The notes: generated by a model from the letters alone, not told the origin. 64,000 bases of DNA from Chloroflexota bacterium (GCA_042408875.1 JBHOQS010000015.1:79299-143298); one strand, 5' to 3'; positions 2,334-35,591 are shown, numbered from the stretch's first letter. Translations and numbers: made by a program.

Positions 2334-2424
2334 AGGGCCGGCTGTGCTGGAACAGCGCGCGTCGCGCCGGCACAGCCGGCGCGCAGGGGGCGACCCCGAC
2401 CCTCAGGGACGGAGGCTTGCAGCA

Positions 2425-3168: not shown

Positions 3169-3225
3169 TTGCGGCGCAGGCAGCTACGTCAGAGCCAGAC
3201 TCAACCAGAGAGGGGGCGAGACACC

Positions 3226-4218: not shown

Positions 4219-4387
4219 CGGCAAACGGCACGGCCGGCGGGCGAGCAGCGACGCTCCTGGCTACTGCTCGACCTCCGCGAGCGATCAGTGCGAGACGAGC
4301 AAAGACGAGCAACGACTGAGACGAGCAAAGACTGGCAAGGTCTACTCAACACGTAGACCCGGTACCTGGACGTGAAGGAGCATAACG

Positions 4388-4999: not shown

Positions 5000-5020
5000 T
5001 CACCCCCAGCGAGGAGACGC

Positions 5021-6010: not shown

Positions 6011-6159
6011 AGAGAAGAGAATAGATATAGATATAGATGTAATCCGTCGTGCGTAAGGCTCCACGAGCCAGTCCGCTATGCGGCAGAGGCATCGCTTCGT
6101 GGCGGGTCTGGTCGAGCTTCTGCGCATGATGGATTCAGCACTGCGACCCGGAGCAACCC

Positions 6160-9530: not shown

Positions 9531-10792
9531 CGTACCGCATCTGCCTGGTCTCCGGTGAGTACCCGCCCGCTCAGGGCGGTGTGGGCGATTACACTGCCTG
9601 CCTGGTCGCTGAGCTCGCGCGCCGGGGCCATGAAGTGCTCATCGCCACCTCGCGGCGCATTCCGGCATCGGCAGGCGGCAATGTTTTCGTATACCCGCTG
9701 GTCGAGCGGTGGAATGCCGCTGCCCTGCCAGTCCTGCAGGCTTTCCTGCGCCAGGTCCGCCCCGACGTCATCCACATTCAGTATCAACCTGCCGCCTACA
9801 GTATGGAGTGGGCGATCTGCCTGCTGCCAGCAATGATCCGGCACATGAACTGGCGTCCGCAGGCGCGGGTGGCTGGCAGCCCGCTCGGCCGGCCGCTTGC
9901 CGGCGCGCGTCCCCTGGTGGCAGTGACCTGCCATGATCTGCGTGTGCCCTGGCTCTTTCCGAAGGCCGGGCCGCTGCGCGAGCTGCCGCCGCGGCTCATG
10001 CGCTGCGCCAGTGATACCGTCATCGCCGTTGCCGCCGAAGACCTGGCGCTGCTTCGGGCGCGCGGCGAGGCGATGCGTGCAACGCATATTCCGATCGGCA
10101 GCAACATCGCGGTAGCGCCACCACCCGGCTACCGGCGCGAGGCATGGCGCGCCGCCCACGGCGTCGGCCCTGACGAGCAGCTCATCGGCTTTTTCGGCTT
10201 TGCGAACGCCAGCAAAGGGCTAGACACCTGGTGGCAGGCCCTGGAGGTGCTGCTCCACGCCGGGCGGCCGGTCCGGCCCGTGCTGATCGGCGGCACAGCT
10301 GGTGACAGCGACGCGACCAATGCGGGCCAGGTGCGGGCGTTGGAGCACTGGCGTAGCAGCAGCGCTGCCGGCCGGCGCGCCATTGTGACGGGCTTCCTCC
10401 CCCCGGCCGAGGTGTCGGCCTGGCTGCTGGCGTGTGACGCTTGCGCACTGCCCTTCCGCGATGGCGCGTCGCTTCGCCGCGGGAGCCTGCTCGCCGCCCT
10501 ACTCCACGGTGTTCCCGTGGTCACGACTTTCCCGCCCAGGGCTGGGACCGCGTTGGAGCCGGGCCGACATGTGCTGTGCGTGCCGCCCGACGACGCTAGC
10601 GCGCTGGCCGCTGCCCTGGCACAGCTCCTCGACGACTCCGAGCTCCGCGAGTGCCTTGCCCGGGCCGGCCGTGCACTGGCCGGGCAGTACACCTGGACCG
10701 CCATCGCCGCACAGCACTTGCGCCTGTACCAGGACCTCCTAGCGCGCCTTCGTCCCCACACCCCGAGCATCCCTGCAGAGGAGTGTCTATGA
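9527..10792 (+). CDS. Glycosyltransferase family 4 (GT-B, retaining)
   Basis: ORF 9461..10792 trimmed to ATG 9527 (MTYRICLVSGEYPPAQGGVGDY), ATGA overlap with upstream stop; C-terminal GT4-type nucleotide-sugar binding region. Confidence 0.85.
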   Translation: MTYRICLVSGEYPPAQGGVGDYTACLVAELARRGHEVLIATSRRIPASAGGNVFVYPLVERWNAAALPVLQAFLRQVRPDVIHIQYQPAAYSMEWAICLLPAMIRHMNWRPQARVAGSPLGRPLAGARPLVAVTCHDLRVPWLFPKAGPLRELPPRLMRCASDTVIAVAAEDLALLRARGEAMRATHIPIGSNIAVAPPPGYRREAWRAAHGVGPDEQLIGFFGFANASKGLDTWWQALEVLLHAGRPVRPVLIGGTAGDSDATNAGQVRALEHWRSSSAAGRRAIVTGFLPPAEVSAWLLACDACALPFRDGASLRRGSLLAALLHGVPVVTTFPPRAGTALEPGRHVLCVPPDDASALAAALAQLLDDSELRECLARAGRALAGQYTWTAIAAQHLRLYQDLLARLRPHTPSIPAEECL

Positions 10793-10811
10793 TCCCCGGT
10801 GAGGTGCGGCA

Positions 10812-18891: not shown

Positions 18892-20058
18892 CTAGCCCGT
18901 GCTCGGCAGCAGCACACCCGGCACTGGGCGCCGCTGCGCAGCAAGGATGTCTTCGTAATAGGCCAGGATACGCCTGGCGATGCGGTCCCAGGCATAGGCC
19001 TGCACGCGGCGCCGGCCAGCCTCGGCCAGCCGGGCCCGATAGCCGTCATCGGCAATCAGACGGGTCAGCGCCACCGCCAGCGCCGTCGCATCCCCAGGCG
19101 GCACCAGCAGGCCGGCCTCACCCGCCGCCAGGACTGTGCGATAGCCCTCAATGTTAGAGGCCACCACCGGCTTGCCCGCCGCCATGGCCTCCAGCAGGAC
19201 GATCCCCTGGCTCTCCCGGCCGATCGCCGGGGCGCAGAACAGATCGCAGGACTTATAGTAGCGGATCTTGTCCTCGGGCGAGACGAAGCCCTTGAAGAGC
19301 ACGTCGGTCAGACCAGCCTGCCGCACGAACGTCTCGTAGGCCGCGCGCTGCTCGGCCTCGAAGGCGCCGACCACGAGCAGGCGCACGCTGGGGAATTGCT
19401 GCTTCACGTACGTGAGCGCCTGAAGTAGGTAGAGCAGCCCCTTGCGCTTCTCCAGGCGCCCTACGAAGAGGATGTTCAGGTAACCGTCGCGCAGCTCTGG
19501 GAAGGGCGCCAGGCGCGGGTCGGCGAACTGCTCCAGGTCCACGCCGTTGGGAATGATCTCGTACGTGGCCGGGAAGTACGTGCTGATGAACCGCATGGCC
19601 GCCGTCGAGACAGCAATGCGCCCATGAAGCTTGGCGAAGTAGCGCGCCAAGATCGGCTTACCCAGGCGGTAGCCGGTGTAGGAGCGGCGCGCCGCATGGA
19701 AGGTCGCCACGTTGACGGTCGTGGAATGGCGCAGCACAGTAATCGGTACTGCTGGCGCGAACGGCTCGTGTAGATGGATAATATCGAAGTTCTCGGCGGC
19801 AAGGATCTGCTTCACCCGCCGGGAGAGGGTGAGCGACAGGTTGATGCGCGCCACCGCCTGATTGGCCGGCACACCAATGATCCGCTCTCCCACGCGGTAG
19901 AGGTTGTCGCACGGGAGCTCACGCTCGTCTTTCGAGGACGGCGCCAGAATGCGCACCTGGTGGCCCAGCCGCCGAAACTGCTGGTCAAGGTGCCGGATGT
20001 GCTCGGTGACGCCGCCCGGATAAGCAAAGTCGTATGGCGAGACCAGGGCGATCTTCAT
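18892..20058 (-). CDS. pimA: GT4 glycosyltransferase, PimA-like (phosphatidylinositol mannosyltransferase candidate)
   Basis: ORF 18892..20139 trimmed to ATG 20058 (ATGA overlap with upstream stop). MKIALVSPYDFAYPGGVTEHIRHLDQQFRRLGHQVRILAPSS resembles the N-terminus of mycobacterial PimA as I recall it (recalled, not aligned); C-terminal GT4 motif region. Confidence 0.8.
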   Translation of the reverse strand: MKIALVSPYDFAYPGGVTEHIRHLDQQFRRLGHQVRILAPSSKDERELPCDNLYRVGERIIGVPANQAVARINLSLTLSRRVKQILAAENFDIIHLHEPFAPAVPITVLRHSTTVNVATFHAARRSYTGYRLGKPILARYFAKLHGRIAVSTAAMRFISTYFPATYEIIPNGVDLEQFADPRLAPFPELRDGYLNILFVGRLEKRKGLLYLLQALTYVKQQFPSVRLLVVGAFEAEQRAAYETFVRQAGLTDVLFKGFVSPEDKIRYYKSCDLFCAPAIGRESQGIVLLEAMAAGKPVVASNIEGYRTVLAAGEAGLLVPPGDATALAVALTRLIADDGYRARLAEAGRRRVQAYAWDRIARRILAYYEDILAAQRRPVPGVLLPSTG

Positions 20059-21017
20059 GGGCGTTCCCCTGCAAGTGTACCGGCGGCCGACTGCGACGCG
20101 GTCTCTTCTGCTGGCCACATGCGACGGAACAGCACCCACTGGCCGGGATCGGCTGCGATCGCCCGCTCCATCATCTCGGCTAATCGCTGCGTCCCGGCGA
20201 TAAGGTCGGCAAGCTCATCTGCCGTGCGCGGCACCTGGAAGAGCGGCTCCACCCAGGCATGGAAGCGGTCACCCGGCAGGCGCCTGGCAAAGGCCATCGA
20301 GATAGGTGCGCCGCTCAGGCGCGCCAGGCCCGCCGGACCTTCCGGCAATCTAGTCGTGCGCCCGAAGAAGCGCACCGGCACGCCCTGTCCCCCGCGGGGT
20401 AGGAAGTCTGCTGCGATGCCGACGATCTCGTTTCGGCGGAGGGCTCGCAGCAATGTGCGCAGACTATTGTGCTCCGGTACGATATGCAGGCCCTTGCTCC
20501 CACGCAGGTGCACTAGCAGTTCCCACAGCCGCTGAGAGCGAGGCACCTCCATCGGCACCCACGCCTGAAACCCGTGCAAGGCGAAGTACTGCCCTACCCA
20601 GTCGATGTTGCCGTAGTGGGCCATGCAGAGCACCAGCCCTTTCCCTTCGCCCAGCGCGGCCTCGATATGCTCCCACCCCTCTATATGTAACACCCGGTCG
20701 AGCTCTTCGGCACGCAGCAGCGGGATACGAAACAGGTCGACGTAGTTCCGTGCTGCGGTGCGAAAGCAGCGGCGCATCGTCTGGTGCACCAGCCGTCTCT
20801 GCTCCTGAGGCGGCAGCGTGGCGAAGACCACCTGAAGGTTCGCGCAGAGGTTCCGCCGCGCCGGACGGGCCGCATAGCAGGCCCCCAGCGCGGCGGCATC
20901 GGCCAGGGCATAGGCAGCCCGGCGCGGCAGCTTCGGGACCGCCCAGGCCCCGGCGCGAAAAAGCCAGTACACGACCGTGTCGCTCAGGCGCTCCGCGGCC
21001 ACGGCCGTCTCACTCAT
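20055..21017 (-). CDS. Lysophospholipid/lipid A-type acyltransferase (LpxL/HtrB/PatA-like)
   Basis: 323 aa; HYGNIDW acyltransferase motif region; overlaps both neighbours by 4 nt. Confidence 0.8.
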   Translation of the reverse strand: MSETAVAAERLSDTVVYWLFRAGAWAVPKLPRRAAYALADAAALGACYAARPARRNLCANLQVVFATLPPQEQRRLVHQTMRRCFRTAARNYVDLFRIPLLRAEELDRVLHIEGWEHIEAALGEGKGLVLCMAHYGNIDWVGQYFALHGFQAWVPMEVPRSQRLWELLVHLRGSKGLHIVPEHNSLRTLLRALRRNEIVGIAADFLPRGGQGVPVRFFGRTTRLPEGPAGLARLSGAPISMAFARRLPGDRFHAWVEPLFQVPRTADELADLIAGTQRLAEMMERAIAADPGQWVLFRRMWPAEETASQSAAGTLAGERP

Positions 21018-21955
21018 GCGAGGCCGGTGCCCGCCTCAGGCTGCGCCGCCGGCCCTGGCGCTTCCAGAAGCCCGCGTTCCGCCGGCTGGACCGGCGCACT
21101 GGGCCACATCGGCCGGAACATGTACCACTGATCGGGATGCAGGCGGATAATCCCCTCCAGGCCCTGGACGATCTGCTGCATCAGCGCCTGGACCTCCTGC
21201 TCGAAGTTGCCCGTCGAGGCCGGGATGATCGGCGGCGCAATCACGCCGGAGTAGGTGTTGTCTCGGTTCCGCCACATGCCCATCGGCACGACCACCGCGC
21301 CCGTCTTTAGCGCCAGCGCCGCGGCGCCAGCCGGCACGTTCGTGCGCTGTCTGAAAAAGGTCACCTCGACACCGCTGGCGTCAACGGGCCGGTCGATCAG
21401 GAGGCCGACGATCTGGTTTCGCCGCAGCACCCGGAAGAGCTTGCGCGCTGCGCCGTCCACGTCGATCACTTCGATGCCAGTGTGCCGGCGGATGCCCTGG
21501 ACCAGCTCGTTGAGCTGGGGCGGCTTGAAGGTATCCGCCACCACAGTGACTTTGAAGGTACGGGCCAGGAACGCCGCGCCCACATCCCAGTTCCCGAAGT
21601 GCCCGCTGACGAAGATGACCCCCTTCCCGTGCGCCAGCGCCTCCTCCAGGTGCTCCCACCCGCGCACGTGCCGGACAGCGCGGGCGATCTCTTCGGGCGA
21701 GAGGTGCCGCAGGCGCAAGAACTCCGCCAGGTACTTGGTGTAGTTGCGCATAGAGCGCCGGGCGACGAGCTTGACCTGCGGATGGTCGGGCGGCAGACCA
21801 AGCACCTGGGCCATGTTCTGCAAGGTGATCTGGCTCTTCTCGCGCCACAGCCAGTAGAAGCACTCGCCGGCGATTACTGCGACCAGGTAGACCAGCCAGC
21901 TAGGCAGTACCTTCACCAGCGCGCTGCACACGCGCATCAGTACGTAGGTAAGCAT
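21014..21955 (-). CDS. Lysophospholipid/lipid A-type acyltransferase (LpxL/HtrB/PatA-like), paralog
   Basis: 313 aa; GHFGNWD motif; ATGA-type overlap with downstream acyltransferase. Confidence 0.8.
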   Translation of the reverse strand: MLTYVLMRVCSALVKVLPSWLVYLVAVIAGECFYWLWREKSQITLQNMAQVLGLPPDHPQVKLVARRSMRNYTKYLAEFLRLRHLSPEEIARAVRHVRGWEHLEEALAHGKGVIFVSGHFGNWDVGAAFLARTFKVTVVADTFKPPQLNELVQGIRRHTGIEVIDVDGAARKLFRVLRRNQIVGLLIDRPVDASGVEVTFFRQRTNVPAGAAALALKTGAVVVPMGMWRNRDNTYSGVIAPPIIPASTGNFEQEVQALMQQIVQGLEGIIRLHPDQWYMFRPMWPSAPVQPAERGLLEAPGPAAQPEAGTGLA

Positions 21956-22012
21956 ACCTTTCCCACCGCTCCCGTCCTGCGCCCACTCCTAAAGCACACG
22001 CCGTCTACGAGT

Positions 22013-23236
22013 CTACGAGCACTCACCTGCGTCGTTGTGGGGGCGTGCCTGGTCAGCGCCTGCGCCTTCGCTACTGCCGGCCCGTGCTGAGCGGGGACGT
22101 GCCCGCTCGGCTGCCGGGCCGCCCTCGCGCTCCGCCGCCGCGCGCAGCGTTGCCGAAGTCAGGTTTGACTCGCCACGGATAAACGCCTCGACGAGATTAC
22201 GCGCCTCGGTATCGCTGTACTGCACCGGCGGCGACTTCATGAAATACGCCGATGGCCCTAGCACTGTGCCAGCCAGCCCGCGATCCATCGCCAGCTTGCA
22301 GCAGCGCACCGCATCGATCACGACACCAGCAGAGTTCGGTGAGTCCCACACCTCCAGCTTGAGCTCGATGTTCAGCGGCACATCACCGAACGAGCGCCCT
22401 TCCAACCGGATGTACGCCCATTTGCGGTCGGCCAGCCACGGCACGTAGTCGCTGGGGCCGATGTGCACGTTCTCGGACCCGATGTCGTAATCGAGCTGTG
22501 AGGTCACCGCGTTGGTCTTGCTTTCTTTCTTGGAGGCCAACCGTGCGCGCTCGAGCATGTTCAGGAAGTCGGTATTGCCGCCCACGTTGAGCTGGTAGGT
22601 GCGCTCCAGGCGCACGCCGCGCTCACGGAACAGGTTCACGAGTACGCGGTGAAGGATCGTGGCGCCCACCTGCGACTTAATGTCATCACCGATCACCGGC
22701 AAGCCACGGCTCTCGAAGCGCCGTTGCCAGTACCGCTCGCGCGCGATGAACACAGGGATGCAGTTGACAAAGCCACAGCCGGCGTCGAGCACCTGCTCGA
22801 CATACCACTTGGTCGCTTCTTCTGATCCCACTGGCAGGTAGTTCACCACCACGTCGGTCCCGGTGTCTCGTAGGATCTCCACGATGTCATCGGTTGAACC
22901 CGGCGCTTTCCGGATGACCCCGGCCAGATACTGGCCGATGCCGTCGTGCGTCATACCCCGATACACCGGCACACCCAGGTGCGGGACATTGGCGAACTTT
23001 ACGGTATTGTTCGGCGCGGTGAAGATCGCCTCGCTCAGATCGCGGCCCACCTTGCGTTCATCGATGTCGAACGCAGCGCTGAACTCGATATCGCCGATGT
23101 GATAGCCACCCAGATCAACATGCATGAGCCCCGGCACGAACTCATCGGTCGGGGCATGGCGATAGTAATGAACACCCTGGACCAGTGCCGACGCGCAGTT
23201 GCCGACGCCGACGATCGCCACGCGAACCTTGCTCAC
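22013..23236 (-). CDS. ino1: myo-inositol-1-phosphate synthase
   Basis: [28 protein letters not shown] ... [22 protein letters not shown] ... [19 protein letters not shown], typical of bacterial/archaeal MIPS; GTG start with AGGAGA RBS; about 50-aa C-terminal tail beyond the usual end. Confidence 0.88.
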
Positions 23237-23243
23237 CCACCGT

Positions 23244-23340
23244 CTCCTTTTATATTTATTTTATTATATTTATTTTTTTATTATATTATTTTTTATTATG
23301 CTATTTATGTTAGCTTGCATTATCTTTTGGTTGTATTATT
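23244..23340. promoter_or_regulatory. Extreme AT-rich island upstream of ino1 operon (probable promoter / unwinding element)
   Basis: About 95 bp almost entirely A/T in a GC-rich genome, directly upstream of the ino1 RBS and downstream of the ArsR gene stop. Confidence 0.5.
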
Positions 23341-23444: not shown

Positions 23445-23831
23445 CTACCCAAGCGGCGCCTGTGCTTCCTCACCGACACGTGAAGTCCCGGCAGCGTTCT
23501 GGAGGCCTAGCTCGGGCACCGGCCCGCCTGCCGTGCCAGTGTAGACGAGCGCTTCGAGCTGCCGCAGGGCGCTGTGGAGGACAGCGTGGTCCAGCGTGCA
23601 GTAGACCTGCCGGCCCAGCTTCTGCGTGCGCACCAGCCCTGCCTTGCGCAGAATACGCAGGTGCCACGACATCAGCGGCTGGCTGATCCGCAGCGCACGC
23701 CCTAGCTCAGATACCGTCGTCTCGCCTGAGCGCGCCAGATGCTGCACCACCCGCAGGCGCGAGCGATCGCCCAGCGCCTTGAACAGCGCAGCCAGCTCGC
23801 GCAGCGCAGCCGCATCAGCCCCGCGTGACAT
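23445..23831 (-). CDS. ArsR/SmtB family transcriptional regulator
   Basis: LKALGDRSRLRVVQHLARSGETTVSELGRALRISQPLMSWHLRILRKAGLV winged-helix HTH typical of ArsR. Confidence 0.8.
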   Translation of the reverse strand: MSRGADAAALRELAALFKALGDRSRLRVVQHLARSGETTVSELGRALRISQPLMSWHLRILRKAGLVRTQKLGRQVYCTLDHAVLHSALRQLEALVYTGTAGGPVPELGLQNAAGTSRVGEEAQAPLG

Positions 23832-24195
23832 GCCGAACCGAACTCTTCCAGGTGACTCGTTCCGTCGCGCCTACCATCTCTCCGGTGCGCGCCCAGCCCG
23901 GATGCATCAAGCGGCGTTGATCAAACAAGTATTGAATAAACGACTATTAATTAAACACTCGTTGATGCATTCCAGCGTGTATGCTACCGTAGCGCTGGAC
24001 GCCTGTCAAGCACAGCGCCTGCGGCCGTGGGTCAGGGCGAGGGCTGCCCGGCGCGCCGCCGGCAGCGCCCGCTGGAGGTGCCAGCGGGCCGCTTGCATCC
24101 CTCGCCAGAACGGCCTACCATAGCAGCCGAAGGCTAGCTGCCGAACGCTGGCGGCTACAGGCTACACATCAGGAACGCAGTGCGATTGGCTCGCC

Positions 24196-24231
24196 GCAGC
24201 GATCGCTGGACCGGCAGCGATCGCTGGACCG
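24196..24231. repeat. Two tandem 18-bp repeats each containing the perfect palindrome CAGCGATCGCTG
   Basis: gcagcgatcgctggaccg x2 immediately upstream of the GGAGG RBS of the E1 alpha gene. Confidence 0.7.
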
Positions 24232-24252: not shown

Positions 24253-25257
24253 ATGGCCACGACTGTGCCCCGCACGCAGCTTGAGATCCAGGAGCTCGGC
24301 CTCGACCGCGCCAGGCTGGCCTGGATGTACCGCACGATGCTGCGCATCCGCCGCTTCGAGGAGCGGGTGAAGCAGCTCTTCCGGGACGCTCGCCTGCGTG
24401 GCAGCGTGCACCTGTATATCGGCGAAGAGGCCGTGGCGACCGGTGCCTGCGCCGCGTTGCGCCCGGACGATTACATCACCAGCACCCACCGCGGCCATGG
24501 CCACTGTATCGCCAAGGGGGGCCGGCTCGATCGTATGATGGCCGAGCTCTACGGACGTGAGACCGGCTACTGCAAGGGCAAGGGCGGCTCGATGCACATC
24601 GCCGACCTGGACTCCGGGATCCTGGGGGCCAACGGGATCGTCGGCGCAGGCATCCCTATCGCCGCCGGCGCGGCCCTGGGGGCACGCATTTTGGGGCGAG
24701 ACCGAGTCGCGCTCGCCTTCTTCGGCGATGGGGGTGCCAACCAGGGCGCCTTCCACGAGGGTATCAACTTCGCCGCGGTGCAGAAGCTGCCGGTCGTGTT
24801 CGTCTGCGAGAATAACCTGTACTCGCAGACCACACCGAACAAGTACACTATCGCCGGCGGCTCAGTAGCGCGCCGCGCCGAGGCATACGGCATCCCCGGC
24901 GAGCAGGTGGATGGCCAGGACGTGCTGGCAGTATACCGCGCGGTTAAGGCGGCCGTGGACCGCGCCCGCGCCGGCCAGGGGCCCTCGCTGATCGAGTGCT
25001 TGACCTACCGCTTCGAGGGGCACTTCCTGGGCGACCCCGAGACGTACCGCTCGCGTGAAGAGGTGCAGGAGTGGCGCGAGAAGCGTGATCCGATCCCGCT
25101 CTTCGCCGCCAAGCTGATCGCGGCCGGCCAGTTCTCGCAGGCCGAGCTCGACCAGATGGACCAGGAGGTGCTGGCCGAGGTCGAGGACGCGGTGCGCTTC
25201 GCCGAGAGCAGCCCGCTGCCACGCCTCGAGGCGCTCTGGGAAGATGTGTATGCCTGA
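24253..25257 (+). CDS. Thiamine-diphosphate-dependent 2-oxoacid (pyruvate/acetoin-type) dehydrogenase E1 alpha subunit
   Basis: GDGGANQGAFHEGINFAA ... YRFEGH TPP-binding E1 alpha signatures. Confidence 0.9.
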   Translation: MATTVPRTQLEIQELGLDRARLAWMYRTMLRIRRFEERVKQLFRDARLRGSVHLYIGEEAVATGACAALRPDDYITSTHRGHGHCIAKGGRLDRMMAELYGRETGYCKGKGGSMHIADLDSGILGANGIVGAGIPIAAGAALGARILGRDRVALAFFGDGGANQGAFHEGINFAAVQKLPVVFVCENNLYSQTTPNKYTIAGGSVARRAEAYGIPGEQVDGQDVLAVYRAVKAAVDRARAGQGPSLIECLTYRFEGHFLGDPETYRSREEVQEWREKRDPIPLFAAKLIAAGQFSQAELDQMDQEVLAEVEDAVRFAESSPLPRLEALWEDVYA

Positions 25258-25332
25258 GCATGAGCCTGGGCGCAGCGTGAGCCCAGGCTCAAGTGGACGC
25301 GAGCATGTGCAGTGGCGGGGAAGGGAGCACCG

Positions 25333-26304
25333 ATGCGTGAGATAACCTACTCTCAGGCGCTGAACGAAGCGCTGCGCGAAGAGATGCTGCGCGACCCGGC
25401 GGTCTTCCTCATCGGCGAGGACCTGATCCAGCCGACCTACGGTGTAACGCGCGGTCTCTATGAGGAATTCGGGCCGCAGCGCGTGATCTGCACGCCGATC
25501 TCCGAGGTCGCCATCGCTGGCGCGGCCACGGGCGCGGCGGTGGTGGGCGCCAGGCCGGTGGCCGAGATCATGTACTCCGACTTCTCCACCATCGCCATGG
25601 ACCAGATCGTCAACCAGGCGGCCAAGATGCGCTACATGTTCGGCGGCAAGGCACGGGTGCCGTGGGTCATGCGCATGACTACCGGCGCCGGCCGCGGCAA
25701 TGCCGCCCAGCACATGCAGAGCCTGGAAGCCTGGTTCGTGCATGTGCCCGGCCTGAAGGTCGTGCTCCCCTCAACGCCATACGACGCCAAGGGCCTGCTG
25801 AAGAGCTCCATCCGCGATGACAATCCGGTCATCTTCCTGGAGCACAAGCTGCTCTATGCCACCAAGGGCCCGGTGCCTGAAGGCGAGTATACGGTGCCGC
25901 TGGGCAAGGCCGACATCAAACGCCGTGGCGAGCACGTGACCATCGTTGCCACCTCGCGGCAGGTGCTTTTCGCCCTCGAGGCCGCCGACAAGCTGGCTGA
26001 AGAGGGTATCTCGGCCGAGGTGATCGATCCCCGCTCGCTCATGCCGCTTGACAAGGAGACGATCCTGGAGTCGGTGAAGCGTACCCACCGCGCGGTAGTC
26101 GTGCATGAGGCCGTCGAGCGCGGCGGCGTGGCCAACTGGATCGCTTCGATCATCCAGGAAGAGGTCTTCGATTACCTGGATGCGCCGGTTGTACGCGTCT
26201 GTGGCGAGAATGTGCCCATTCCCTTCGCCCAGAACCTGGAAGCTGCGGCCATCCCGAACCCCGAGCGCATCGCTGAGGCTGTGCGGAAGATCACGATTTT
26301 GTGA
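25333..26304 (+). CDS. 2-oxoacid dehydrogenase E1 beta subunit (transketolase-like)
   Basis: ORF 25312..26304 trimmed to ATG 25333 with AAGGGAG RBS; MREITYSQALNEALREEM ... typical E1 beta. Confidence 0.9.
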   Translation: MREITYSQALNEALREEMLRDPAVFLIGEDLIQPTYGVTRGLYEEFGPQRVICTPISEVAIAGAATGAAVVGARPVAEIMYSDFSTIAMDQIVNQAAKMRYMFGGKARVPWVMRMTTGAGRGNAAQHMQSLEAWFVHVPGLKVVLPSTPYDAKGLLKSSIRDDNPVIFLEHKLLYATKGPVPEGEYTVPLGKADIKRRGEHVTIVATSRQVLFALEAADKLAEEGISAEVIDPRSLMPLDKETILESVKRTHRAVVVHEAVERGGVANWIASIIQEEVFDYLDAPVVRVCGENVPIPFAQNLEAAAIPNPERIAEAVRKITIL

Positions 26305-26366
26305 GCGATCCCACCCTCCCGCGCGGGCAGGAGCTGGGGTGGGGTAACTACAACTACAGGTGCTCC

Positions 26367-27671
26367 ATGCCATCGCCGTTGACGATGCCGCAGCTCGGCA
26401 TCACCATGACTGAGGGAAAGATCACGCGCTGGCTCAAGCGCGAGGGTGACACTGTCTCTGCCGGAGAGCCGGTGTGCGAGATTGAGACCGACAAGATCAG
26501 CACGACCGTCGAGGCAACGACGGCCGGCACGCTCGGGCGCATCCTGGTCCCGGAGGGCGCCAGCGCCCCGGTTGCGGCGCCCATCGCCCTGATCCTGGCA
26601 CCGGGAGAGTCGCTGGAGGGCGCCCCGACCGCCCCCGCGGCGGTGACCGCAGGGCCCAGGCCGCCTGCCGCGCAGAGCGCCGCGGAGCCAGCCGCCGGCG
26701 TGGCTGTCGCGGAAGCCGCTGCGCCGGCAGCTCCGGCCGAAGTCGAGCGGGTGCGCGCGACGCCGATGGCCCGGCGGGTGGCTGAAGAGCTCGGCATCGA
26801 CCTGCGTACCGTGCGCGGCAGCGGCCCGCACGGCCGTATCGTCGAGGCCGATGTGCGCCGTGCTGCTGCTGAGCGAGCGGCCGCAGCGCCTGCTGCTGCC
26901 GCGGCCGCGCCACCGCCGGTGATGCCACCCCCCGCCCCGGCCGCGCCAGCCCCGGCGGCTCCGCCGGCCATCCGTACGATCCCTCTGACCGGGATGCGCC
27001 GCACGATCGCCCGGCGGATGCTAGAGAGCCTTCAGCAGTCGGCGCAGCTCACCCTCACCACCGAGGCCGACGCCACGGCACTCGTGGCGGCGCGCACTCG
27101 GCTGGTCGAGGACTGGCAGGCCGTCGCGCGCGCGCAGGGCCAGGAGACGCGCGGGCCCAGCTACAACGACCTGCTGATCAAGCTCTGCGCTCGCGCGCTC
27201 ACTGAGCACCCCATGCTCAATGCGCGCCTTGCCGGCGACCAGATCGAACTGCTCGCCGAGGTGCACATCGGCCTGGCTGTGGCCCTGGACGATGGCCTGA
27301 TCGTGCCGGTCGTGCGCAACGCCCACCAGAAAGACCTGCGCCAGATCGCCGCCGAGACGGCCGAACTGGTGCAGCGAGCGCGCACTGGCATGCTCACTCT
27401 CGACGAGATCACCGGCGGCACGTTCACGATCACCAACCTGGGCATGTACGATGTGGACTTCTTTACACCGATCCTGAACCCGCCGGAATGTGCCATCCTG
27501 GGTGTCGGGCGCATCGTGGACCGCCTGGTGCCCTCGCCTGCCGGGCCTGTCACGCGTCAGTTCATGCCGCTGAGCCTGACGTTCGACCACCGTATCGTGG
27601 ACGGCGCACCTGCTGCACGGTTTCTCCAGCGGATCAAGCAACTGATCGAAGACCCGGTGCTGGCCCTGTGA
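26367..27671 (+). CDS. Dihydrolipoamide acyltransferase E2 (lipoyl, E3-binding and catalytic domains)
   Basis: ORF 26301..27671 trimmed to ATG 26367 (MPSPLTMPQLGITMTEG); lipoyl-lysine motif EIETDKIST; Ala/Pro linkers; catalytic DHRIVDGA. Confidence 0.85.
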   Translation: MPSPLTMPQLGITMTEGKITRWLKREGDTVSAGEPVCEIETDKISTTVEATTAGTLGRILVPEGASAPVAAPIALILAPGESLEGAPTAPAAVTAGPRPPAAQSAAEPAAGVAVAEAAAPAAPAEVERVRATPMARRVAEELGIDLRTVRGSGPHGRIVEADVRRAAAERAAAAPAAAAAAPPPVMPPPAPAAPAPAAPPAIRTIPLTGMRRTIARRMLESLQQSAQLTLTTEADATALVAARTRLVEDWQAVARAQGQETRGPSYNDLLIKLCARALTEHPMLNARLAGDQIELLAEVHIGLAVALDDGLIVPVVRNAHQKDLRQIAAETAELVQRARTGMLTLDEITGGTFTITNLGMYDVDFFTPILNPPECAILGVGRIVDRLVPSPAGPVTRQFMPLSLTFDHRIVDGAPAARFLQRIKQLIEDPVLAL

Positions 27672-27684
27672 AGGAGAGAGTGCA

Positions 27685-28926
27685 GTGGCTATTGCGGTAA
27701 GCAAGCAAACGGTGCGCATCCCCTGGGCAGCGTTCTTCGGCGATACGGAGATCGAGCTGGCGTTCCCGGCGGAGTGGGACGTCGAGGTCTATCCGCCAGC
27801 GGACGGGCCGGACATCGGTGAGGATGGCATCGCCCAGGCGTTCGCCAACCCTATCGGCACGCCGCGCCTCGCTGAGCTCGCCCATGGCCGGCGCTCGGCG
27901 GTTATCATCGTGGATGACCTCTCTCGGCCGACCCCGGCGCACCGCCTGGTCCCGCGTGTGCTGGCCGAGCTCGAAGCTGGCGGTCTCAGCCGCGACCAGA
28001 TGCTCGTCATCATGGGCGTGGCCAACCACCGGCCGCTCACTCGCGAGGACATGGTGAAGAAGCTGGGCGAAGCGGTCGTCTCTACCGTACGCGTGAAGAA
28101 CCACTTCTCCTGGGCGCATTGCGCGTATATCGGCACGACCTCCCGCGGCACGCCAGTGGCGCTGAACAAAGACTTCCTCGCTGCCGATCTGAAGATCCTG
28201 GTCGGGAGCATTGTCCCGCACGGGAAGCCCGGTTTCGCCGGTGGCGCTAAGCTGGTGCTTCCCGGCGTGGCCTCGATCGACACTGCCTACGCCTGGCACG
28301 GTCCCGACGGCCCGCCGGGCGGGCTGATGAAGGTGGAGACCGAGGCGCGCCTGGACGCCGAAGAGGCGGCGCGCATGGCCGGGGTTGATGCCATCGTCAA
28401 TGTGATCCCGAACTCACGGCGTGGCATCGCCGGACTGGTCGTGGGTGACCTCGTGGCGGCCCATCGCGCTGGTGTGGCTATTGCCCAGCGCGTCTTCGCC
28501 ACGCGAGTGCCTGCCGGCGTGGATATCGGCGTCTTCACGGCATATCCAAAGGACACCGAGTACTGCCAGCTCAGCCTGGCGTTCAATGTGTGGTGGTCGG
28601 CGGCAGAGCCGATCGTGCACGAGCGCGGCACGATCGTAGCTTGCACCGCCGCCAGCGAGGGCCCGGGCTTCCATTCACTGATGGGGCCGGGGATGCGCCT
28701 GGGCGGTGAGTGGGGCGCCATGCGCAATCTCCGCCGTCCCTTCATGCCGCGGCAGATGATCATCTTCTCCCCCGGCATCTGCGAGAACGATCTCTCTCCA
28801 GAGGCACGTGCCGAGATGACCCTGTGCCGCACCTGGTCTTGCGTAGTTGAGCGGCTGCGCGAGCTCCACGGCAGCTCTGCCCGCGTGGCCGTCTTCCCGT
28901 GCTCGGCCATGCAGCTCGCTGCCTGA
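27685..28926 (+). CDS. LarA-like (DUF2088, lactate racemase family) protein
   Basis: GTG start with AGGAGAGAG RBS 4 nt upstream; IIVDDLSRPTP and HGKPGFAGGAK motifs resemble LarA family signatures as I recall them (not aligned). Confidence 0.65.
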   Translation: MAIAVSKQTVRIPWAAFFGDTEIELAFPAEWDVEVYPPADGPDIGEDGIAQAFANPIGTPRLAELAHGRRSAVIIVDDLSRPTPAHRLVPRVLAELEAGGLSRDQMLVIMGVANHRPLTREDMVKKLGEAVVSTVRVKNHFSWAHCAYIGTTSRGTPVALNKDFLAADLKILVGSIVPHGKPGFAGGAKLVLPGVASIDTAYAWHGPDGPPGGLMKVETEARLDAEEAARMAGVDAIVNVIPNSRRGIAGLVVGDLVAAHRAGVAIAQRVFATRVPAGVDIGVFTAYPKDTEYCQLSLAFNVWWSAAEPIVHERGTIVACTAASEGPGFHSLMGPGMRLGGEWGAMRNLRRPFMPRQMIIFSPGICENDLSPEARAEMTLCRTWSCVVERLRELHGSSARVAVFPCSAMQLAA

Positions 28927-28934
28927 GCGTCTCC

Positions 28935-28966
28935 TCGTACAATAGACACATCGTACAATAGACACA
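28935..28966. repeat. Tandem direct repeat 16 bp x2 (tcgtacaatagacaca)
   Basis: Perfect duplication just downstream of the LarA-like stop, within a lower-GC 439-bp intergenic region. Confidence 0.8.
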
Positions 28967-29022
28967 GTGGCGTTGTCCGGTGATAACGCCCCTGTGCTTG
29001 AAACGTGCTCCTGTCCAGAATG

Positions 29023-29037
29023 TTTACTACTAGTAAA
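29023..29037. promoter_or_regulatory. Perfect palindrome TTTACTA-C-TAGTAAA (candidate operator)
   Basis: 7-bp inverted arms around a central C in the leader of the sugar ABC transporter operon. Confidence 0.4.
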
Positions 29038-29230
29038 TTGATAAATGGTGCACATCAGCACAAGCCACTGCACCGATTGTGTCCTTTTCAGGGATTCAGT
29101 AGAATAGCCTATGCCTTATAGGCGTCACATGCTTTACAGACAGGCAGAAACGTCTGGCACACCGCAGGCGCTCTCTGCCATGAGGTTTGCGACGCACTGT
29201 ACGACATACGTACGATATACTGTCCTCTAT

Positions 29231-29294
29231 GAAGACACGCATGGCGCGGAAGACACGCATGGCGCGGAAGACACACATGGCGCGTCAAGACACG
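29231..29294. repeat. Tandem 18-bp repeat, about 3.5 copies (gaagacacgcatggcgcg)
   Basis: Copies at 29231, 29249, 29267 (one mismatch) and a partial fourth; non-coding, upstream of the permease start. Confidence 0.8.
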
Positions 29295-29365
29295 TTGTTT
29301 CGACGTATGAGGTAGTCGTGCCGCTGCTGCCGCAGAGGCAGCGCCGCTGGAAAACTGGAGGTGCT

Positions 29366-30307
29366 ATGTCGGCTGACCGTGTTCTGGCACCGCCATCACC
29401 GCTCACCATAGCGCGACGAGCACGCTGGTCTGCCCTGGGGCCGGACTGGAAGATCGGGTACGCGCTGGTTCTACCGGTCGTCAGCATCCTGCTCGCATTC
29501 ATCGCTGTTCCCTTCCTGACCTCGATCTTGATGAGCTTCCAGGACATACGAGCCGGCGGGGACGCGGTGTTCGTCGGCCTGCGCAACTACACCAGTCTGC
29601 TGTTCGGTGCGAACCGGGCGCGCTTCCTCAATAGCGTGTGGGTGAGCTTCCTGTATACGTTCGCCGCTATTGTGTTGAAGTTCATCCTGGGTATGACGCT
29701 GGCGCTGGTGCTGCATAGCGCTATCCGCGGCCGCAACTTCTTCCGCGCGCTCCTCTTCCTGCCGTGGTCTATCCCCGCTGTGGTCAGCGCGTACGCCTGG
29801 AAGTGGATCTACGACGATATGCGCGGCGTCCTGAACGTGGAGCTCAGCTACTTCGGCCTGATCAAGGAGCCCATTCTCTGGACTGCCGACATCAACCTGG
29901 CGCTCTGGGCGGTGGTCGCAGCAGTAGTCTGGCAGGGCACGCCCTTCTGGACTATGACCTTCCTCGCCGGGCTCCAGTCGATCCCTCATGAGCTCTACGA
30001 TGCCGCGCATATCGACGGCGCCGGCGCCTTGCAGAGCTTCTTTTATGTCACATTACCCAGCCTGGCCAATGTGATCCTGGTGACGGTGCTGCTCTCGACT
30101 ATCTGGACAGCCAACGGCCTCCAGTACGTGTACATCCTCACGGCGGGCGGGCCGGCGAACAGCACAGAGATCTTCCCCATGCTAGCGCTGAACCTGGGTC
30201 TGCGGGCGTACGACCTGGGCATGGGGGCCACGGTGCCGCTGATGTTCTTCCCGTTCTTTGCCGTGCTGATCGTTATTCTGACCAGGCGCATGCTTCAGCA
30301 TGAGTAG
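29366..30307 (+). CDS. ABC transporter permease (MalF/UgpA-type sugar permease)
   Basis: ORF 29111..30307 trimmed to ATG 29366 with GGAGGT RBS; the upstream part of the ORF spans the tandem repeats; EAA-type loop region. Confidence 0.85.
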   Translation: MSADRVLAPPSPLTIARRARWSALGPDWKIGYALVLPVVSILLAFIAVPFLTSILMSFQDIRAGGDAVFVGLRNYTSLLFGANRARFLNSVWVSFLYTFAAIVLKFILGMTLALVLHSAIRGRNFFRALLFLPWSIPAVVSAYAWKWIYDDMRGVLNVELSYFGLIKEPILWTADINLALWAVVAAVVWQGTPFWTMTFLAGLQSIPHELYDAAHIDGAGALQSFFYVTLPSLANVILVTVLLSTIWTANGLQYVYILTAGGPANSTEIFPMLALNLGLRAYDLGMGATVPLMFFPFFAVLIVILTRRMLQHE

Positions 30308-30391
30308 CGCCGGGACCGCCGGGCTGAAGCCCGGAGTCGCGCTGGCGCCTGCGCCGTGGAAGAGCGAGGAGCAAGAAGCACAAGGAGACAG

Positions 30392-31291
30392 ATGACGGTG
30401 GAGCGAGCGACGACGCTGGGAACAGGGATGCGGGCGCGGAGCTCCGTGCTGGCCGTCCTGACCCACAAGAACCGCCACTGGCTGGCGCTGGCGTACGTCA
30501 TCGTGGTCGTGGCCAGCCTGTGGGCGATCTTCCCCTTCTACTGGATGCTGCTTACGTCGGTGCGCCATGAAAGCGAGATGTACAGCCGCGATCCGGCGCT
30601 GTGGCCGAAGTCTTTCACGTTGCAGCATTACCATTCCGCGCTGTTTGCATCAGGCTTCCCGCGCTTCTTTGCGAACAGCTTCATCGTCGCTGCCAGCACG
30701 ACGGTGGTCTCCGTTATCGCCGGAGCGATGGCGGCCTACGCGCTCACCCGGCTCCGCTTCGCCGGCCGTCCGCTGATCGCCCGCATGCTGGTGGTCAGCT
30801 ATCTGGCCCCTGGTTCAGTGCTGTTCATCCCGCTCTTCGCCCTGTTCGTGTCCCTCCGCCTCACCAATACGCTGCACGGCCTGGTGCTGGCGCACCTGAC
30901 GTTCACCGTGCCGTTCTCCACCTGGATGCTGATGGGCTATTTCCGCACCATCCCGGTCGAGCTCGAAGAGGCCGCGCTTGTGGACGGGGCTACGCGCTGG
31001 GGCGCCCTGTGGCGCGTGGTCGCTCCGCTCTCGGCGCCGGCGCTGGTCGTTGTCGCGGTGTTCTCGTTCACGCTCTCATGGAACGAATTCCTCTATGCCC
31101 TGGTGCTGGTCCAGCGCAAGGAGCTCATGACCGCGCCGGTCGGGCTGACCTTCTTCCAGACCGCCGATCTCTTCTACTGGGGCGCGATCATGGCGGCGTC
31201 TACCCTGATGGCGCTCCTGCCGGTGCTGCTGTATATCATCGGGCAACGCTGGGTGATCGCTGGCTGGACTGCCGGCGCAGTCAAGCACTAG
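30392..31291 (+). CDS. ABC transporter permease (MalG/UgpE-type sugar permease)
   Basis: ORF 30356..31291 trimmed to ATG 30392 with AGGAG RBS; EAA loop VELEEAALVDGATRWGALWRVVAP. Confidence 0.85.
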   Translation: MTVERATTLGTGMRARSSVLAVLTHKNRHWLALAYVIVVVASLWAIFPFYWMLLTSVRHESEMYSRDPALWPKSFTLQHYHSALFASGFPRFFANSFIVAASTTVVSVIAGAMAAYALTRLRFAGRPLIARMLVVSYLAPGSVLFIPLFALFVSLRLTNTLHGLVLAHLTFTVPFSTWMLMGYFRTIPVELEEAALVDGATRWGALWRVVAPLSAPALVVVAVFSFTLSWNEFLYALVLVQRKELMTAPVGLTFFQTADLFYWGAIMAASTLMALLPVLLYIIGQRWVIAGWTAGAVKH

Positions 31292-31369
31292 CACGCGTTG
31301 TCGAGGGTAGCAGGCATCAATAGTCCTCATGCTGACATCATGCCAACAATCATCAAGGGAGGCACACAG

Positions 31370-32704
31370 ATGCGTACCGCATTGACGCGACGAACGGCCC
31401 TCGGTCTGTTCAGCGCCGGGATGGGAGCTGGCCTGGCGGCTGCCTGCGCACCCGGCGCAGGCGGGGGGCAGGTCACGACCGGCGGAAAGGGCGCCCAGAT
31501 CACCGTCTGGCGCGGCAGCGACTACATCCCCGAGGTCAATGCCTACTTAAAGGAGATGTGGGAGCAGTACGCCAGGGAGAAGGAGCTCAAAGTCGCCCTG
31601 GAAGAGAAGAGCGGCAACTGGAACGACCAGCTCATTGCCGCTGTCCAGGCCGGTACGCCGCCCGATATTGTGGGTGTGTTCGACTACCAGACCCAGTACT
31701 GGCGCAGCCAGGGCCAGACCATCGATGTCACCGACATGGTCACCCGCTACCGCAGCGCGGAAGGCGGCTTCTTCGACTATGTGAACGCCACCACGATGCA
31801 CCAGGGCAAGTACTACGGTGTGCCGCTGGCGGTGAATGCCTGGCCCTTCCACGTGCGTCAGGACATCCTGGACCGGCAGGGCGGGAAGTGGCCGGATAGC
31901 TGGGAACAGTTCCGCGCCATCTCGCGGGCCGTGACCAGAGCGCCGGACTTCTACGCCTACGGCATGACCCTCGGCCGGACGAACGACGTGAACAACCACT
32001 TCCTGGGTACCTTGTGGACCTTCGGTGGCAAGCTCCAGAACGACGATGGCAGCCTGGCCGTGGATGCGCGCAACAGCGCCTGGCTGGAGACGTTGAACCT
32101 CATCAAGAGAATGTATGAGGAGGACAAGATCATCCCGCCGGGCGCGATCAACTGGGACGACGGCGCCAACAACAACGCCTACCAGGGCGAGCAGATCGCC
32201 TGGACCTCTAACCCCACCAGCATCTACACCTGGCTGGCGCGCAATAACAAGCCGGATATCCTGAAGGCCACGAAGTTCTACCCCTATCCGAAGGGGCCGG
32301 CAGGCCAGTACGGCCAGGTCGATGTGTGGGCACACGTGATCTTCAAAGCGAGTAAAGCGCAGGCAGAGGCGAAGGGCGCGCTCGAATACGTGCTGCGGCC
32401 CGAGCGCTACAAGACCTACATCGAGAATCTCAAGGGCCGCTTCCTGCCGGTGTACAAGAACTTCGTGGACCTGCCAATGTGGAAGGAGAACCCGGCGTAC
32501 GCCGAGTATGGCAACATCGCCCGGAACGGCCGCATCATGGCCTATTCCTCGTCGCCGTCGCCGGCATACTCCGATATTACGACGAAGTTCCTGATCGGCG
32601 ATATGATGCAGGACCTACTGGTCAAAAAACAGACGCCCCAGCAGGCGTTGCAGACTTTTGTCGAGGCAGCCAAGGCAATCTACGAACGCTACCGGGGACG
32701 CTAG
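31370..32704 (+). CDS. ABC transporter solute-binding protein (sugar type), Tat/lipoprotein-like signal
   Basis: ORF 31298..32704 trimmed to ATG 31370 with GGGAGG RBS; MRTALTRRTALGLFSAGMGAGLAAAC signal with lipobox. Confidence 0.85.
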   Translation: MRTALTRRTALGLFSAGMGAGLAAACAPGAGGGQVTTGGKGAQITVWRGSDYIPEVNAYLKEMWEQYAREKELKVALEEKSGNWNDQLIAAVQAGTPPDIVGVFDYQTQYWRSQGQTIDVTDMVTRYRSAEGGFFDYVNATTMHQGKYYGVPLAVNAWPFHVRQDILDRQGGKWPDSWEQFRAISRAVTRAPDFYAYGMTLGRTNDVNNHFLGTLWTFGGKLQNDDGSLAVDARNSAWLETLNLIKRMYEEDKIIPPGAINWDDGANNNAYQGEQIAWTSNPTSIYTWLARNNKPDILKATKFYPYPKGPAGQYGQVDVWAHVIFKASKAQAEAKGALEYVLRPERYKTYIENLKGRFLPVYKNFVDLPMWKENPAYAEYGNIARNGRIMAYSSSPSPAYSDITTKFLIGDMMQDLLVKKQTPQQALQTFVEAAKAIYERYRGR

Positions 32705-34464: not shown

Positions 34465-35316
34465 TCAAACCGATAAAGTCCCCCCAATACCAAAGACCTC
34501 CTGTGCCCGCTCCAGGAACCAGCGATGGGCGCGAGGACGCCCGGCGACCCATTCACCGCGCCAGATCGTCGGCGGCCGCCCGGCCCAGTCGCTGGCGGCG
34601 CAGCCTGCCTCCTGAACGAGCAGAGCCGCCGCGGCGACATCCCAGGGGTTAAGGCTGGGGTGGTAATGCAAGTCCAGACGTCCGGCGGCTACATAGGCCA
34701 GCGCCAGTGCCGCGGAGCCGAGCACCCGTACAGCTTCGGCCTCCGGCGCCAACCGCGCGGCCAGGGTATAGGCGCGTCGGCGCATCTCTGGATGGGAGGA
34801 TGCATCGAAGGACACCAGCCAAGCGCGGTCAGCCTCTGCGTCTTCTGGTGGCACCGACAGCGGCTCGCCATTGCGTTGCGCGCCGCGGCCGGCCACAGCG
34901 GTGAACAGCTCGTCTCGCAGCGGATCGTACAGCGCTGCGACGACCGGCGTGCCGTCACACACGAGGGCGACCGACACACAGAAGAACGGCACACCCCAGG
35001 CGAAGTTGGTCGTGCCATCTAACGGATCGACGATCCACTGGCAGCCAGCGTGCCGTGGCACTGCCTGGGGCGCCAGCTCCTCGGACAGGAAGCCGTGGTC
35101 GGGGAACTCCCTCCGCACGAGTTCACGGACGGCCGTATCCGCGGCTACGTCGATTTCTGTGACGATGTTCCCGTGTCCTTTGGAGGCGCGCCAGAAAGTG
35201 CCACCGAAGCCCTTGCGCACGATCTCCCCGGCGCGACGCGCTGCCTCAGTAGCAACATTGAGCGCGCTGCGCCCGCTTGCAGCGCGCAGGACGGACCGGC
35301 CTTCGCCTGCCGGCAC
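34465..35316 (-). CDS. Inositol monophosphatase family protein (IMPase/SuhB-like)
   Basis: ORF 34465..35376 trimmed to GTG 35316 after a purine-rich RBS; WIVDPLDGTTNF and downstream IMPase metal-binding motifs. Confidence 0.8.
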   Translation of the reverse strand: MPAGEGRSVLRAASGRSALNVATEAARRAGEIVRKGFGGTFWRASKGHGNIVTEIDVAADTAVRELVRREFPDHGFLSEELAPQAVPRHAGCQWIVDPLDGTTNFAWGVPFFCVSVALVCDGTPVVAALYDPLRDELFTAVAGRGAQRNGEPLSVPPEDAEADRAWLVSFDASSHPEMRRRAYTLAARLAPEAEAVRVLGSAALALAYVAAGRLDLHYHPSLNPWDVAAAALLVQEAGCAASDWAGRPPTIWRGEWVAGRPRAHRWFLERAQEVFGIGGTLSV

Positions 35317-35591
35317 CCTGTTCTCTCTCTTCTCTTCTCCCTCCGCTACTCTCCGCTGCTCCCTGCTGCTCTCCATAAGAGCCCTGCTGCTCCAAAAATA
35401 TTCCTATTTCTCATACTCTCTCATATACCCTTGAAAGGCAACGCTGGCATTCTAGCACCGCCGAGGAGCCGCCCCCAAACCGGCTCCCGCCCGGCGTCGC
35501 AGCGAAGATCCACCGTCTTGTTCCAACGATAGGCGCGTGCTATTGTTGTCCTACGAAAGGGCTTCCTGAAGAGACCGAAGCAGAGGCGTCC

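Follow-up and report, generated by a model that had tools for sequence, protein, structure and literature searches.

A LarA-superfamily gene of a Lys298-lacking clade behind pyruvate dehydrogenase/acetoin-type E1-E2 genes in a narrow Chloroflexota lineage

We have examined a 64,000-nucleotide stretch of a Chloroflexota bacterium (GCA_042408875.1, JBHOQS010000015.1:79299-143298; this whole stretch is referred to as the window, and its coordinates are used below) in which the genes for the E1 alpha, E1 beta and E2 components of a 2-oxoacid dehydrogenase complex are followed by a gene of the LarA superfamily, the product of which we call LarAh. LarAh is a member of a widespread, uncharacterised clade of the superfamily that lacks the residue Lys298, and its position behind E2 is restricted to a single narrow lineage of Chloroflexota. 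The explanation that we favour, and to which we give about an even chance, is that LarAh is a nickel-pincer nucleotide (NPN)-dependent epimerase or racemase acting at C2 of a 2-hydroxy carboxylate, probably one that is sugar-acid-like and imported by an ATP-binding cassette (ABC) transporter, and that its place as the fourth cistron is lineage-specific and reflects at most pathway-level co-expression.

Organization of the E1/E2-LarAh locus

The four genes are consecutive open reading frames (ORFs) on the + strand, arranged head to tail between 24253 and 28926:

24253-25257, + strand: E1 alpha subunit, thiamine pyrophosphate (TPP)-binding, of the pyruvate dehydrogenase (PDH)/acetoin dehydrogenase branch; PF00676 (E1_dh) at 332 bits, GDG...NN TPP motif
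25312-26304, + strand: E1 beta subunit; Pfam Transket_pyr and Transketolase_C, NF006667
26301-27671, + strand: E2 dihydrolipoyl acyltransferase; Pfam Biotin_lipoyl, E3_binding and 2-oxoacid_dh
27685-28926, + strand: LarAh, LarA-superfamily protein of 413 amino acids; Lar_N (PF09861), 160.9 bits (cutoff 23.3)

The probable start of E2 is the ATG at 26367 rather than the GTG at 26301. Its stop codon at 27669-27671 is followed by AAGGAGAgagtgca and then by the GTG start of LarAh at 27685, a gap of 13 nt that holds the ribosome binding site (RBS) AAGGAGA. No promoter-like or terminator-like site is predicted between E2 and LarAh, and because of this and the short gap it is likely that LarAh is co-transcribed with the E1/E2 genes. 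An initial annotation of this DNA had described the same gene order, the 13-nt gap and the strong RBS, and all of the coordinates are borne out. It had also reported that E3 and larB, larC and larE are missing from the window, and this holds as well: Pfam scans of the approximately 56 predicted genes of the whole 64 kb give no match to E3 (Pyr_redox), LarB (AIRC), LarC (DUF111) or LarE-type proteins, and a six-frame motif search finds no E3 redox-disulfide motif.

LarAh retains the cofactor and catalytic residues of LarA and lacks two substrate contacts

An AlphaFold model of LarAh built on 40 homologues (pLDDT 93.5, pTM 0.92) matches the substrate-bound structures of LarA_Ip (9EIA/9EID) with template-modelling (TM) scores of 0.80-0.82 and a Foldseek E-value of 2e-31, and L. 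plantarum LarA with TM scores of 0.76-0.80. Sequence and profile alignments place LarAh residues D78, R81, H115 and H179 opposite D72, R75, H108 and H174 of the L. plantarum enzyme, and K189, H205 and Q295 opposite K184 (the cofactor tether), H200 (a nickel ligand) and Q295. Among 40 aligned clade members spanning 52-90% identity the first six of these, D78, R81, H115, H179, K189 and H205, are invariant, and Q295 is present in 39. The NPN-binding set (the equivalents of Arg75, Lys184 and His200) is complete, and the equivalents of the catalytic pair His108/His174 and of Asp72 are retained, so that the LarA-family membership proposed in the initial annotation stands up to alignment with characterised LarAs, the cofactor lysine, the nickel-binding histidine and both catalytic histidines all being conserved. 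LarAh most likely binds the nickel-pincer nucleotide cofactor. With a 2-hydroxy carboxylate as substrate it would be expected to invert the configuration at C2, the His115/His179 pair serving in a proton-coupled hydride transfer.

The substrate contacts are a different matter. Arg73, Gln295, Lys298 and two histidines of LarA_Ip bind the carboxylate of the substrate, and His107 and Tyr294 bind its 2-hydroxyl. The equivalent of Tyr294 is a cysteine in LarAh and a leucine, isoleucine, valine or glutamine elsewhere in the clade, which has a tyrosine or phenylalanine at 293, one residue before it; the equivalent of Lys298 is a leucine in LarAh, and among the 40 clade sequences this position is occupied by threonine in 12, leucine in 11, methionine in 11, arginine in three, alanine in two and asparagine in one. 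The alignment of both positions is secure because the YPxDxxxxQ register is ungapped. To our knowledge, Lys298 is present in every characterised member of the LarA superfamily. Since LarAh lacks both Lys298 and Tyr294, which are substrate contacts in characterised LarAs, it is not a canonical lactate racemase. Lys298 has been listed as catalytic, and some uncharacterised LarAH groups are without it (Desguin et al. 2020, PMC7583248).

Published signatures and family models also leave LarAh outside the assigned groups. The residues that follow its second catalytic histidine, G180 and K181, occupy the positions of F175 and F176, and they match none of the published signatures, which at these positions are F,F in lactate racemases and E,V/S in gluconate epimerases. 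LarAh falls below every NCBIfam LarAH equivalog cutoff, its best score being with the malate racemase model MAR-LarAH6 (227.6 against a cutoff of 500), followed by MAR-LarAH5 (182.4 against 462), LarA (177.7 against 460), LarAH10 (153.8 against 540) and LarAH14-16 (32.2 against 740). We attempted to place the clade among the 25 groups of Desguin 2020; the clade motif strings have no match in the supplementary sequences of that study (about the first 400 residues of each), and among six compared sequences from groups 1, 23, 24 and 25 the best match is to group 23, at 34% identity.

The E2-LarAh arrangement is confined to one lineage

Three contigs, L084, L087 and L091, keep the complete E1 alpha-E1 beta-E2-LarAh order with the same 13-nt gap, with LarAh 90-91% and E1 alpha 96-97% identical to the window proteins, and in the two longer of them, L087 and L091, the flanking genes are the same too, with INO1 and ArsR on the upstream side and a permease-permease-solute-binding protein (SBP) set on the downstream side. 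In L085 the E2-LarAh pair is kept with a gap of 120 nt (LarAh 81% and E2 79% identical), and an ABC exporter gene comes next. A metagenome scan for further close relatives yielded one new close locus (L091) and one distant one. The E2-LarAh adjacency is limited to close relatives, with 81-91% LarAh identity, and is seen in five contigs.

We note that these close relatives carry about 310 nt between E1 beta and E2 that are missing in the window (26305-26366); the additional segment lies at 1900-2212 in L084, 4937-5252 in L087 and 4322-4634 in L091, and a 58-amino-acid ORF is called within it in two of the three.

Beyond this lineage the linkage is not seen. We searched by tblastn (E<=1e-10 first, then E<=1e-5) for E1 alpha, E1 beta and E2 within 10 kb of LarAh at 80 species-representative loci of clade members with 35-64% identity, drawn from Chloroflexota/Dehalococcoidia, Actinomycetota, Myxococcota, Armatimonadota/Fervidibacter, Poribacteria, Latescibacterota and a Thaumarchaeote, and found them at none. 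The metagenome contigs L001 and L086 (65-68% identity) have no E1/E2 linkage, and conversely LarAh follows E2 in none of the four next-closest E1 operons (L089, L090, L093 and L094). A general coupling of LarAh to E1/E2 is rejected on the 0/80 tblastn result. Pfam scans reveal no 2-hydroxyacid dehydrogenase within the LarAh-E1/E2 cluster that might link the two activities. The earlier suggestion that racemisation feeds the TPP-dependent complex is thus not supported, the adjacency being a feature of relatives at 81-91% identity and absent from both the 80 clade loci and the four next-closest E1 operons.

Usual neighbours of the LarAh clade

The clade is represented in 267 genome stretches and more than 1,100 protein clusters, from Chloroflexota, Actinomycetota, Myxococcota, Poribacteria, Fervidibacter and others, and its members have recurrent neighbours. 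At 15 Chloroflexota-type loci (56-64% identity) an enolase-superfamily gene resembling acid-sugar dehydratases lies directly downstream of LarAh, and 14 of the 15 have a DppC-type ABC permease gene directly upstream, with an SBP and a second permease downstream; two of the enolase-superfamily genes were scanned, those of L046 and L059, and their matches to the dehydratase models for L-rhamnonate, galactonate and arabinonate lie under the cutoffs. Four Fervidibacter loci have a different enolase-superfamily (MR_MLE) lineage directly downstream. In seven Poribacteria loci, several with tandem LarAh paralogues, LarAh adjoins a GFO/IDH/MocA dehydrogenase gene, and in L001 and L004 it adjoins a PTE-family (lactonase-like) gene. 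No larB, larC or larE is among the families listed for the immediate neighbours at 66 related loci.

Transport genes also lie near LarAh in the window, where a CUT1-type ABC importer set (BPD_transp_1 twice and SBP_bac_1 in Pfam, with MalF/MalG/UgpA/GlcU-like matches) occupies 29366-32704 and has no ATPase gene:

29366-30307, + strand: CUT1-type permease 1
30356-31291, + strand: CUT1-type permease 2
31298-32704, + strand: solute-binding protein

In L001 and L086 a probable orthologue of this transporter, with permeases 47-50% identical, adjoins LarAh in convergent orientation; L086 has a second CUT1 system with permeases 36-39% identical to those of the window, and L058 holds a weaker set. Taken together, the recurring theme of the clade points to an imported substrate handled by LarAh together with an acid-sugar dehydratase or a sugar dehydrogenase.

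The paired LarAh paralogues of Poribacteria (L076-L082, at about 10001-13400 or the equivalent) are arranged in tandem or 2-3 kb apart, are 33-38% identical to the window protein, and have CTP synthase as a conserved upstream neighbour.

The E1/E2 complex

The best solved relative of E1 alpha is human PDH E1 alpha (253 bits, against 119-192 for branched-chain keto acid dehydrogenase-type chains), and the protein narrowly misses the PDH equivalog model TIGR03182 (384.9 against a cutoff of 393.85). E1 beta passes the PDH E1 beta subfamily model NF006667 (406.1 against 321), whereas E2 fails TIGR01349 (326.4 against 445), and NF011457 matches just its lipoyl part. E2 shows ETDKI as its lipoyl motif and DHRIVDG as its catalytic one, and its best solved relatives are PDH E2 chains. 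These features imply a PDH/acetoin-type operon, and because E2 carries an E3-binding domain, E3 would be supplied in trans.

Among the four next-closest E1 operons (66-67% E1 alpha identity) three have no E3. L089, L090 and L093 encode a beta-propeller-like protein after E2, whereas in L094 the genes in this position are those for an NAD-binding dehydrogenase and E3. Lack of E3 is therefore ordinary, and the position after E2 is variable. The beta-propeller-like genes (L089 10930-11604, L090 10915-11589, L093 3686-4354) encode proteins of about 222 amino acids with faint Pfam hints of SGL, Vgb_lyase and DUF6923.

We also tried to separate AcoA from PdhA by means of annotated plasmid records, which was uninformative; the plasmid-borne E1 alpha relatives, labelled with a generic 'TPP-dependent dehydrogenase E1 alpha', acoA or pdhA, are about 50-54% identical under either of the last two labels, and the acoA labels are automatic. 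No acoR, acoX, acoL, butanediol dehydrogenase or hydrolase-type AcoC gene is present within the window.

Interpretation and alternatives

These observations are best accounted for if, in one narrow Chloroflexota lineage, a PDH/acetoin-type E1-E2 operon gained a LarA-superfamily gene as its last cistron. The family-wide synteny suggests that the substrate of LarAh would be imported and sugar-acid-like rather than lactate, and the link to E1/E2 most likely consists in pathway-level co-expression, or arose by chance as genes accreted to the operon, rather than being an obligatory partnership with the complex.

Several points weigh against this interpretation. The transporter is set apart from LarAh by a spacer of about 440 nt that is not conserved, and in transcriptional terms LarAh is tied to E2, not to the transporter, by the short gap of 13 nt, by its strong RBS and by the lack of a predicted terminator. 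Within the lineage the conserved partner of LarAh is E2, since L085 keeps the pair despite its different downstream gene, the ABC exporter. The window contains no enolase-superfamily, GFO or PTE gene, and no larBCE genes are seen in its 64 kb. Finally, Desguin et al. 2020 (PMC7583248) count the missing Lys298 among the catalytic residues, and isomerase activity is thus not assured.

The tight operon linkage is kept in five contigs, which represent at least two sublineages and among which L085 has a different downstream neighbour, and it might alternatively mean that the operon is a functional unit. In this view a 2-hydroxy acid (D/L-lactate, for example) would be racemised by LarAh, a stereospecific dehydrogenase encoded elsewhere would form the 2-oxo acid, and E1/E2, co-transcribed with LarAh, would oxidise this to an acyl-CoA. 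Pyruvate derived from lactate would suit an E1/E2 of the PDH type, and the NAD-binding, hydroxyacid-dehydrogenase-like gene of L094 illustrates that the slot after E2 can hold a substrate-processing enzyme. We nonetheless regard this as unlikely. The cluster has no hydroxyacid dehydrogenase, and the association is missing from all 80 other LarAh-clade species searched and from all four next-closest E1 operons; the protein is without Tyr294 and Lys298, has G/K at the F175/F176 positions where the lactate racemase signature is F,F,W,E/Q, and scores 177.7 with the NCBIfam lactate racemase model, the cutoff of which is 460.

The loss of Lys298 could also mean that LarAh is not a racemase or epimerase at all, and that it performs some other NPN-mediated hydride reaction or has lost activity; position 298 is indeed threonine, leucine or methionine in 34 of 40 clade members, and the residue was called catalytic by Desguin et al. 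We think this improbable, because both catalytic histidines and all of the cofactor ligands are invariant in a clade that is widespread and conserved at 50-90% identity, which argues for a selected enzymatic function, and because the dehydratase genes found in synteny are consistent with a role as an epimerase, as in the GntE/ManD case.

A last proposal, that E1/E2 is acetoin-type (cleaving alpha-hydroxyketones) and LarAh an alpha-hydroxyketone racemase (of acetoin, for example) supplying the accepted enantiomer, would make the four genes self-sufficient with no extra dehydrogenase, and it draws on the narrow miss of E1 alpha at the PDH equivalog cutoff, the generic or acoA labels of its plasmid-borne relatives, the fit between loss of a carboxylate-binding lysine and a neutral substrate, and a hydride-transfer chemistry that would presumably work on a secondary alcohol beside a ketone; however, it is very improbable, since Lys298 is absent clade-wide and yet most of the clade adjoins enolase-superfamily enzymes acting on carboxylates, the other carboxylate ligands R81 and Q295 are retained, the acoA labels are automatic, and the window has no acoR, acoX, acoL or butanediol dehydrogenase.

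Transcription signals and intergenic DNA

The regions on either side of the four genes contain a divergent regulator gene and several putative signals and repeats:

23445-23831, - strand: ArsR/SmtB-family helix-turn-helix regulator, divergent from the E1 operon; HTH_20/HTH_5, NF033788 at 82.6 bits against a cutoff of 55
23981-24009, - strand: putative promoter-like site TTGACA-17-TAGCAT for the ArsR gene, from a consensus scan; conserved in relatives
24093-24121, + strand: putative promoter-like element TTGCAT-17 nt-TACCAT upstream of E1 alpha; conserved in relatives
24197-24208 and 24215-24226, E1 alpha 5' leader: 12-nt palindrome CAGCGATCGCTG, present twice and belonging to an 18-nt tandem duplication
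28937-28966, LarAh-permease spacer: direct repeat GTACAATAGACACA, two copies
29023-29037, LarAh-permease spacer: palindrome TTTACTAcTAGTAAA
29231-29284, LarAh-permease spacer: three 18-nt tandem copies of GAAGACACGCATGGCGCG

The ArsR regulator and the palindromic repeats (24197-24226) noted just upstream in the initial annotation are both present. The position of the ArsR gene is kept in L087, L088 and L091, and conservation of the upstream region was judged from a four-sequence alignment of these with the window. AT-rich TTGATGAA/ATTAATTAAA repeats at approximately 23915-23970 adjoin the ArsR promoter-like site and are conserved in the relatives, and these repeats may be regarded as candidate operators. 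Conservation of the E1 alpha promoter-like element is seen as an invariant block, GCTTGCATCCC..AGAAC.GCCTACCATAGCAGCCG, in all four sequences. The CAGCGATCGCTG palindromes are not conserved in L087, L088 and L091, and the window shows no enrichment of GCGATCGC (five observed, 5.4 expected); we reject the palindromes as a conserved operator or a HIP1-like element on these grounds. An Rfam scan predicts no riboswitch or leader in the intergenic regions, the only match being a distant tmRNA.

The spacer between LarAh and the permease (28927-29365, about 440 nt, permease 1 starting at the ATG at 29366) is lower in G+C, and only the RBS and start of the permease can be aligned with L084 and L087.

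Other features of the window

The locus is flanked by genes resembling those for phosphatidylinositol-mannoside synthesis (18892-23236 and 34465-35376), which encode an inositol-3-phosphate synthase (TIGR03450, 532 bits), a GT4 glycosyltransferase, two lipid-A-type acyltransferases and an inositol monophosphatase. A run of about 80 nt of nearly pure A/T (TTATATTTATTTTATTATATTTATTTTTTTATTATATTATTTTTTATTATGCTATTTATG...) at 23250-23330, in a genome of approximately 66% G+C, lies immediately upstream of the gene for this synthase and contains a weak promoter-like site on the - strand. Further away, a cytochrome b/Rieske/cytochrome c cluster followed by a KDPG/KHG aldolase gene (6160-6819) occupies 2290-6819, and inside the cluster is an unannotated Ala/Pro-rich protein of 349 amino acids (3169-4218). 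A full-length tmRNA gene at 61127-61494 on the - strand (RF00023, 182.7 bits) is the sole gathering-level Rfam match in the window.

Significance

For approximately half of the LarA superfamily no reaction has been assigned (PMC11770544). The existence of LarA homologues of unknown function, among them groups without K298, is already recognised in the literature, and E1-E2 operons that lack E3 are commonplace. What is new here is the definition of a widespread Lys298-less clade, together with a testable substrate hypothesis for it: the neighbours of the clade, namely an ABC importer, an enolase-superfamily dehydratase and a sugar dehydrogenase, point to a specific class of substrates that can be tested. 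The presence of a LarA-family gene in a PDH-type operon appears to be an undescribed arrangement, a full-text literature search for DUF2088 together with pyruvate dehydrogenase having returned nothing. As a lineage-specific oddity, the PDH-linked LarAh could reveal pathway-level co-regulation or, less probably, a new type of nickel-pincer substrate. Were the acetoin proposal true, it would provide the first non-carboxylate substrate of an NPN enzyme and the gene for a long-postulated acetoin racemase.

Comparison with known systems

The E1 alpha/E1 beta/E2 domain sets of the heterotetrameric-E1 PDH complex (pdhA-pdhB-pdhC, mitochondrial and alphaproteobacterial) and of the acetoin dehydrogenase system are complete in the window as well. 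The window operon shares the TPP, lipoyl and DHRxxDG motifs with them, and its closest solved relatives are PDH components; it differs in that E1 alpha and E2 lie under the PDH equivalog cutoffs, in its lack of an E3 gene, and in having a member of the LarA family as its fourth cistron.

LarAh shares its two-domain fold with LarA_Ip (Sar, LarAH2; the broad-spectrum 2-hydroxyacid racemase of Isosphaera pallida, 9EIA/9EID) and L. plantarum LarA (5HUQ), with TM scores of 0.76-0.82, and all of them have the NPN-tethering lysine, the nickel-binding histidine, Arg75, Asp72, both catalytic histidines and Gln295. Identity to these enzymes is, however, just 25-29%, with Tyr294 replaced by Cys, Lys298 by Leu and F175/F176 by G and K, and the loop at alpha14 that holds W358/T359 in them is shorter in LarAh and unalignable. 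The malate racemase Mar2 (LarAH6; 6D6Z) is the best NCBIfam and profile-PDB match and has the YPKD motif in common with LarAh, but the malate racemase signature (H/Q and K at W358/T359, plus K298) is not found in LarAh, which scores 227.6 bits against the cutoff of 500.

In genomic context the LarAh clade is reminiscent of the D-gluconate 2-epimerase GntE (LarAH19/20), a LarA homologue that acts in mannonate/gluconate catabolism and is encoded beside sugar-acid catabolic genes (PMC7583248), in that clade members lie near enolase-superfamily dehydratases, sugar dehydrogenases and ABC importers, although there is no dehydratase near LarAh in the window. The GntE signature (E, V/S, A, H, with K298 kept) is not present in LarAh, and the solved Thermotoga maritima homologue 4NAR (Q9WYS3; LarAH20 in the Desguin 2020 dataset) is a weak match, at 24-50 bits. 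LarAH group 23, of unknown function and represented by ANT_08010 of Anaerolinea thermophila (34% identity, 164 bits), shares with LarAh both an N-terminal IPWG...W motif and a DDxSRPTP motif, and differs from it in keeping K298 and in having a longer C-terminal part.

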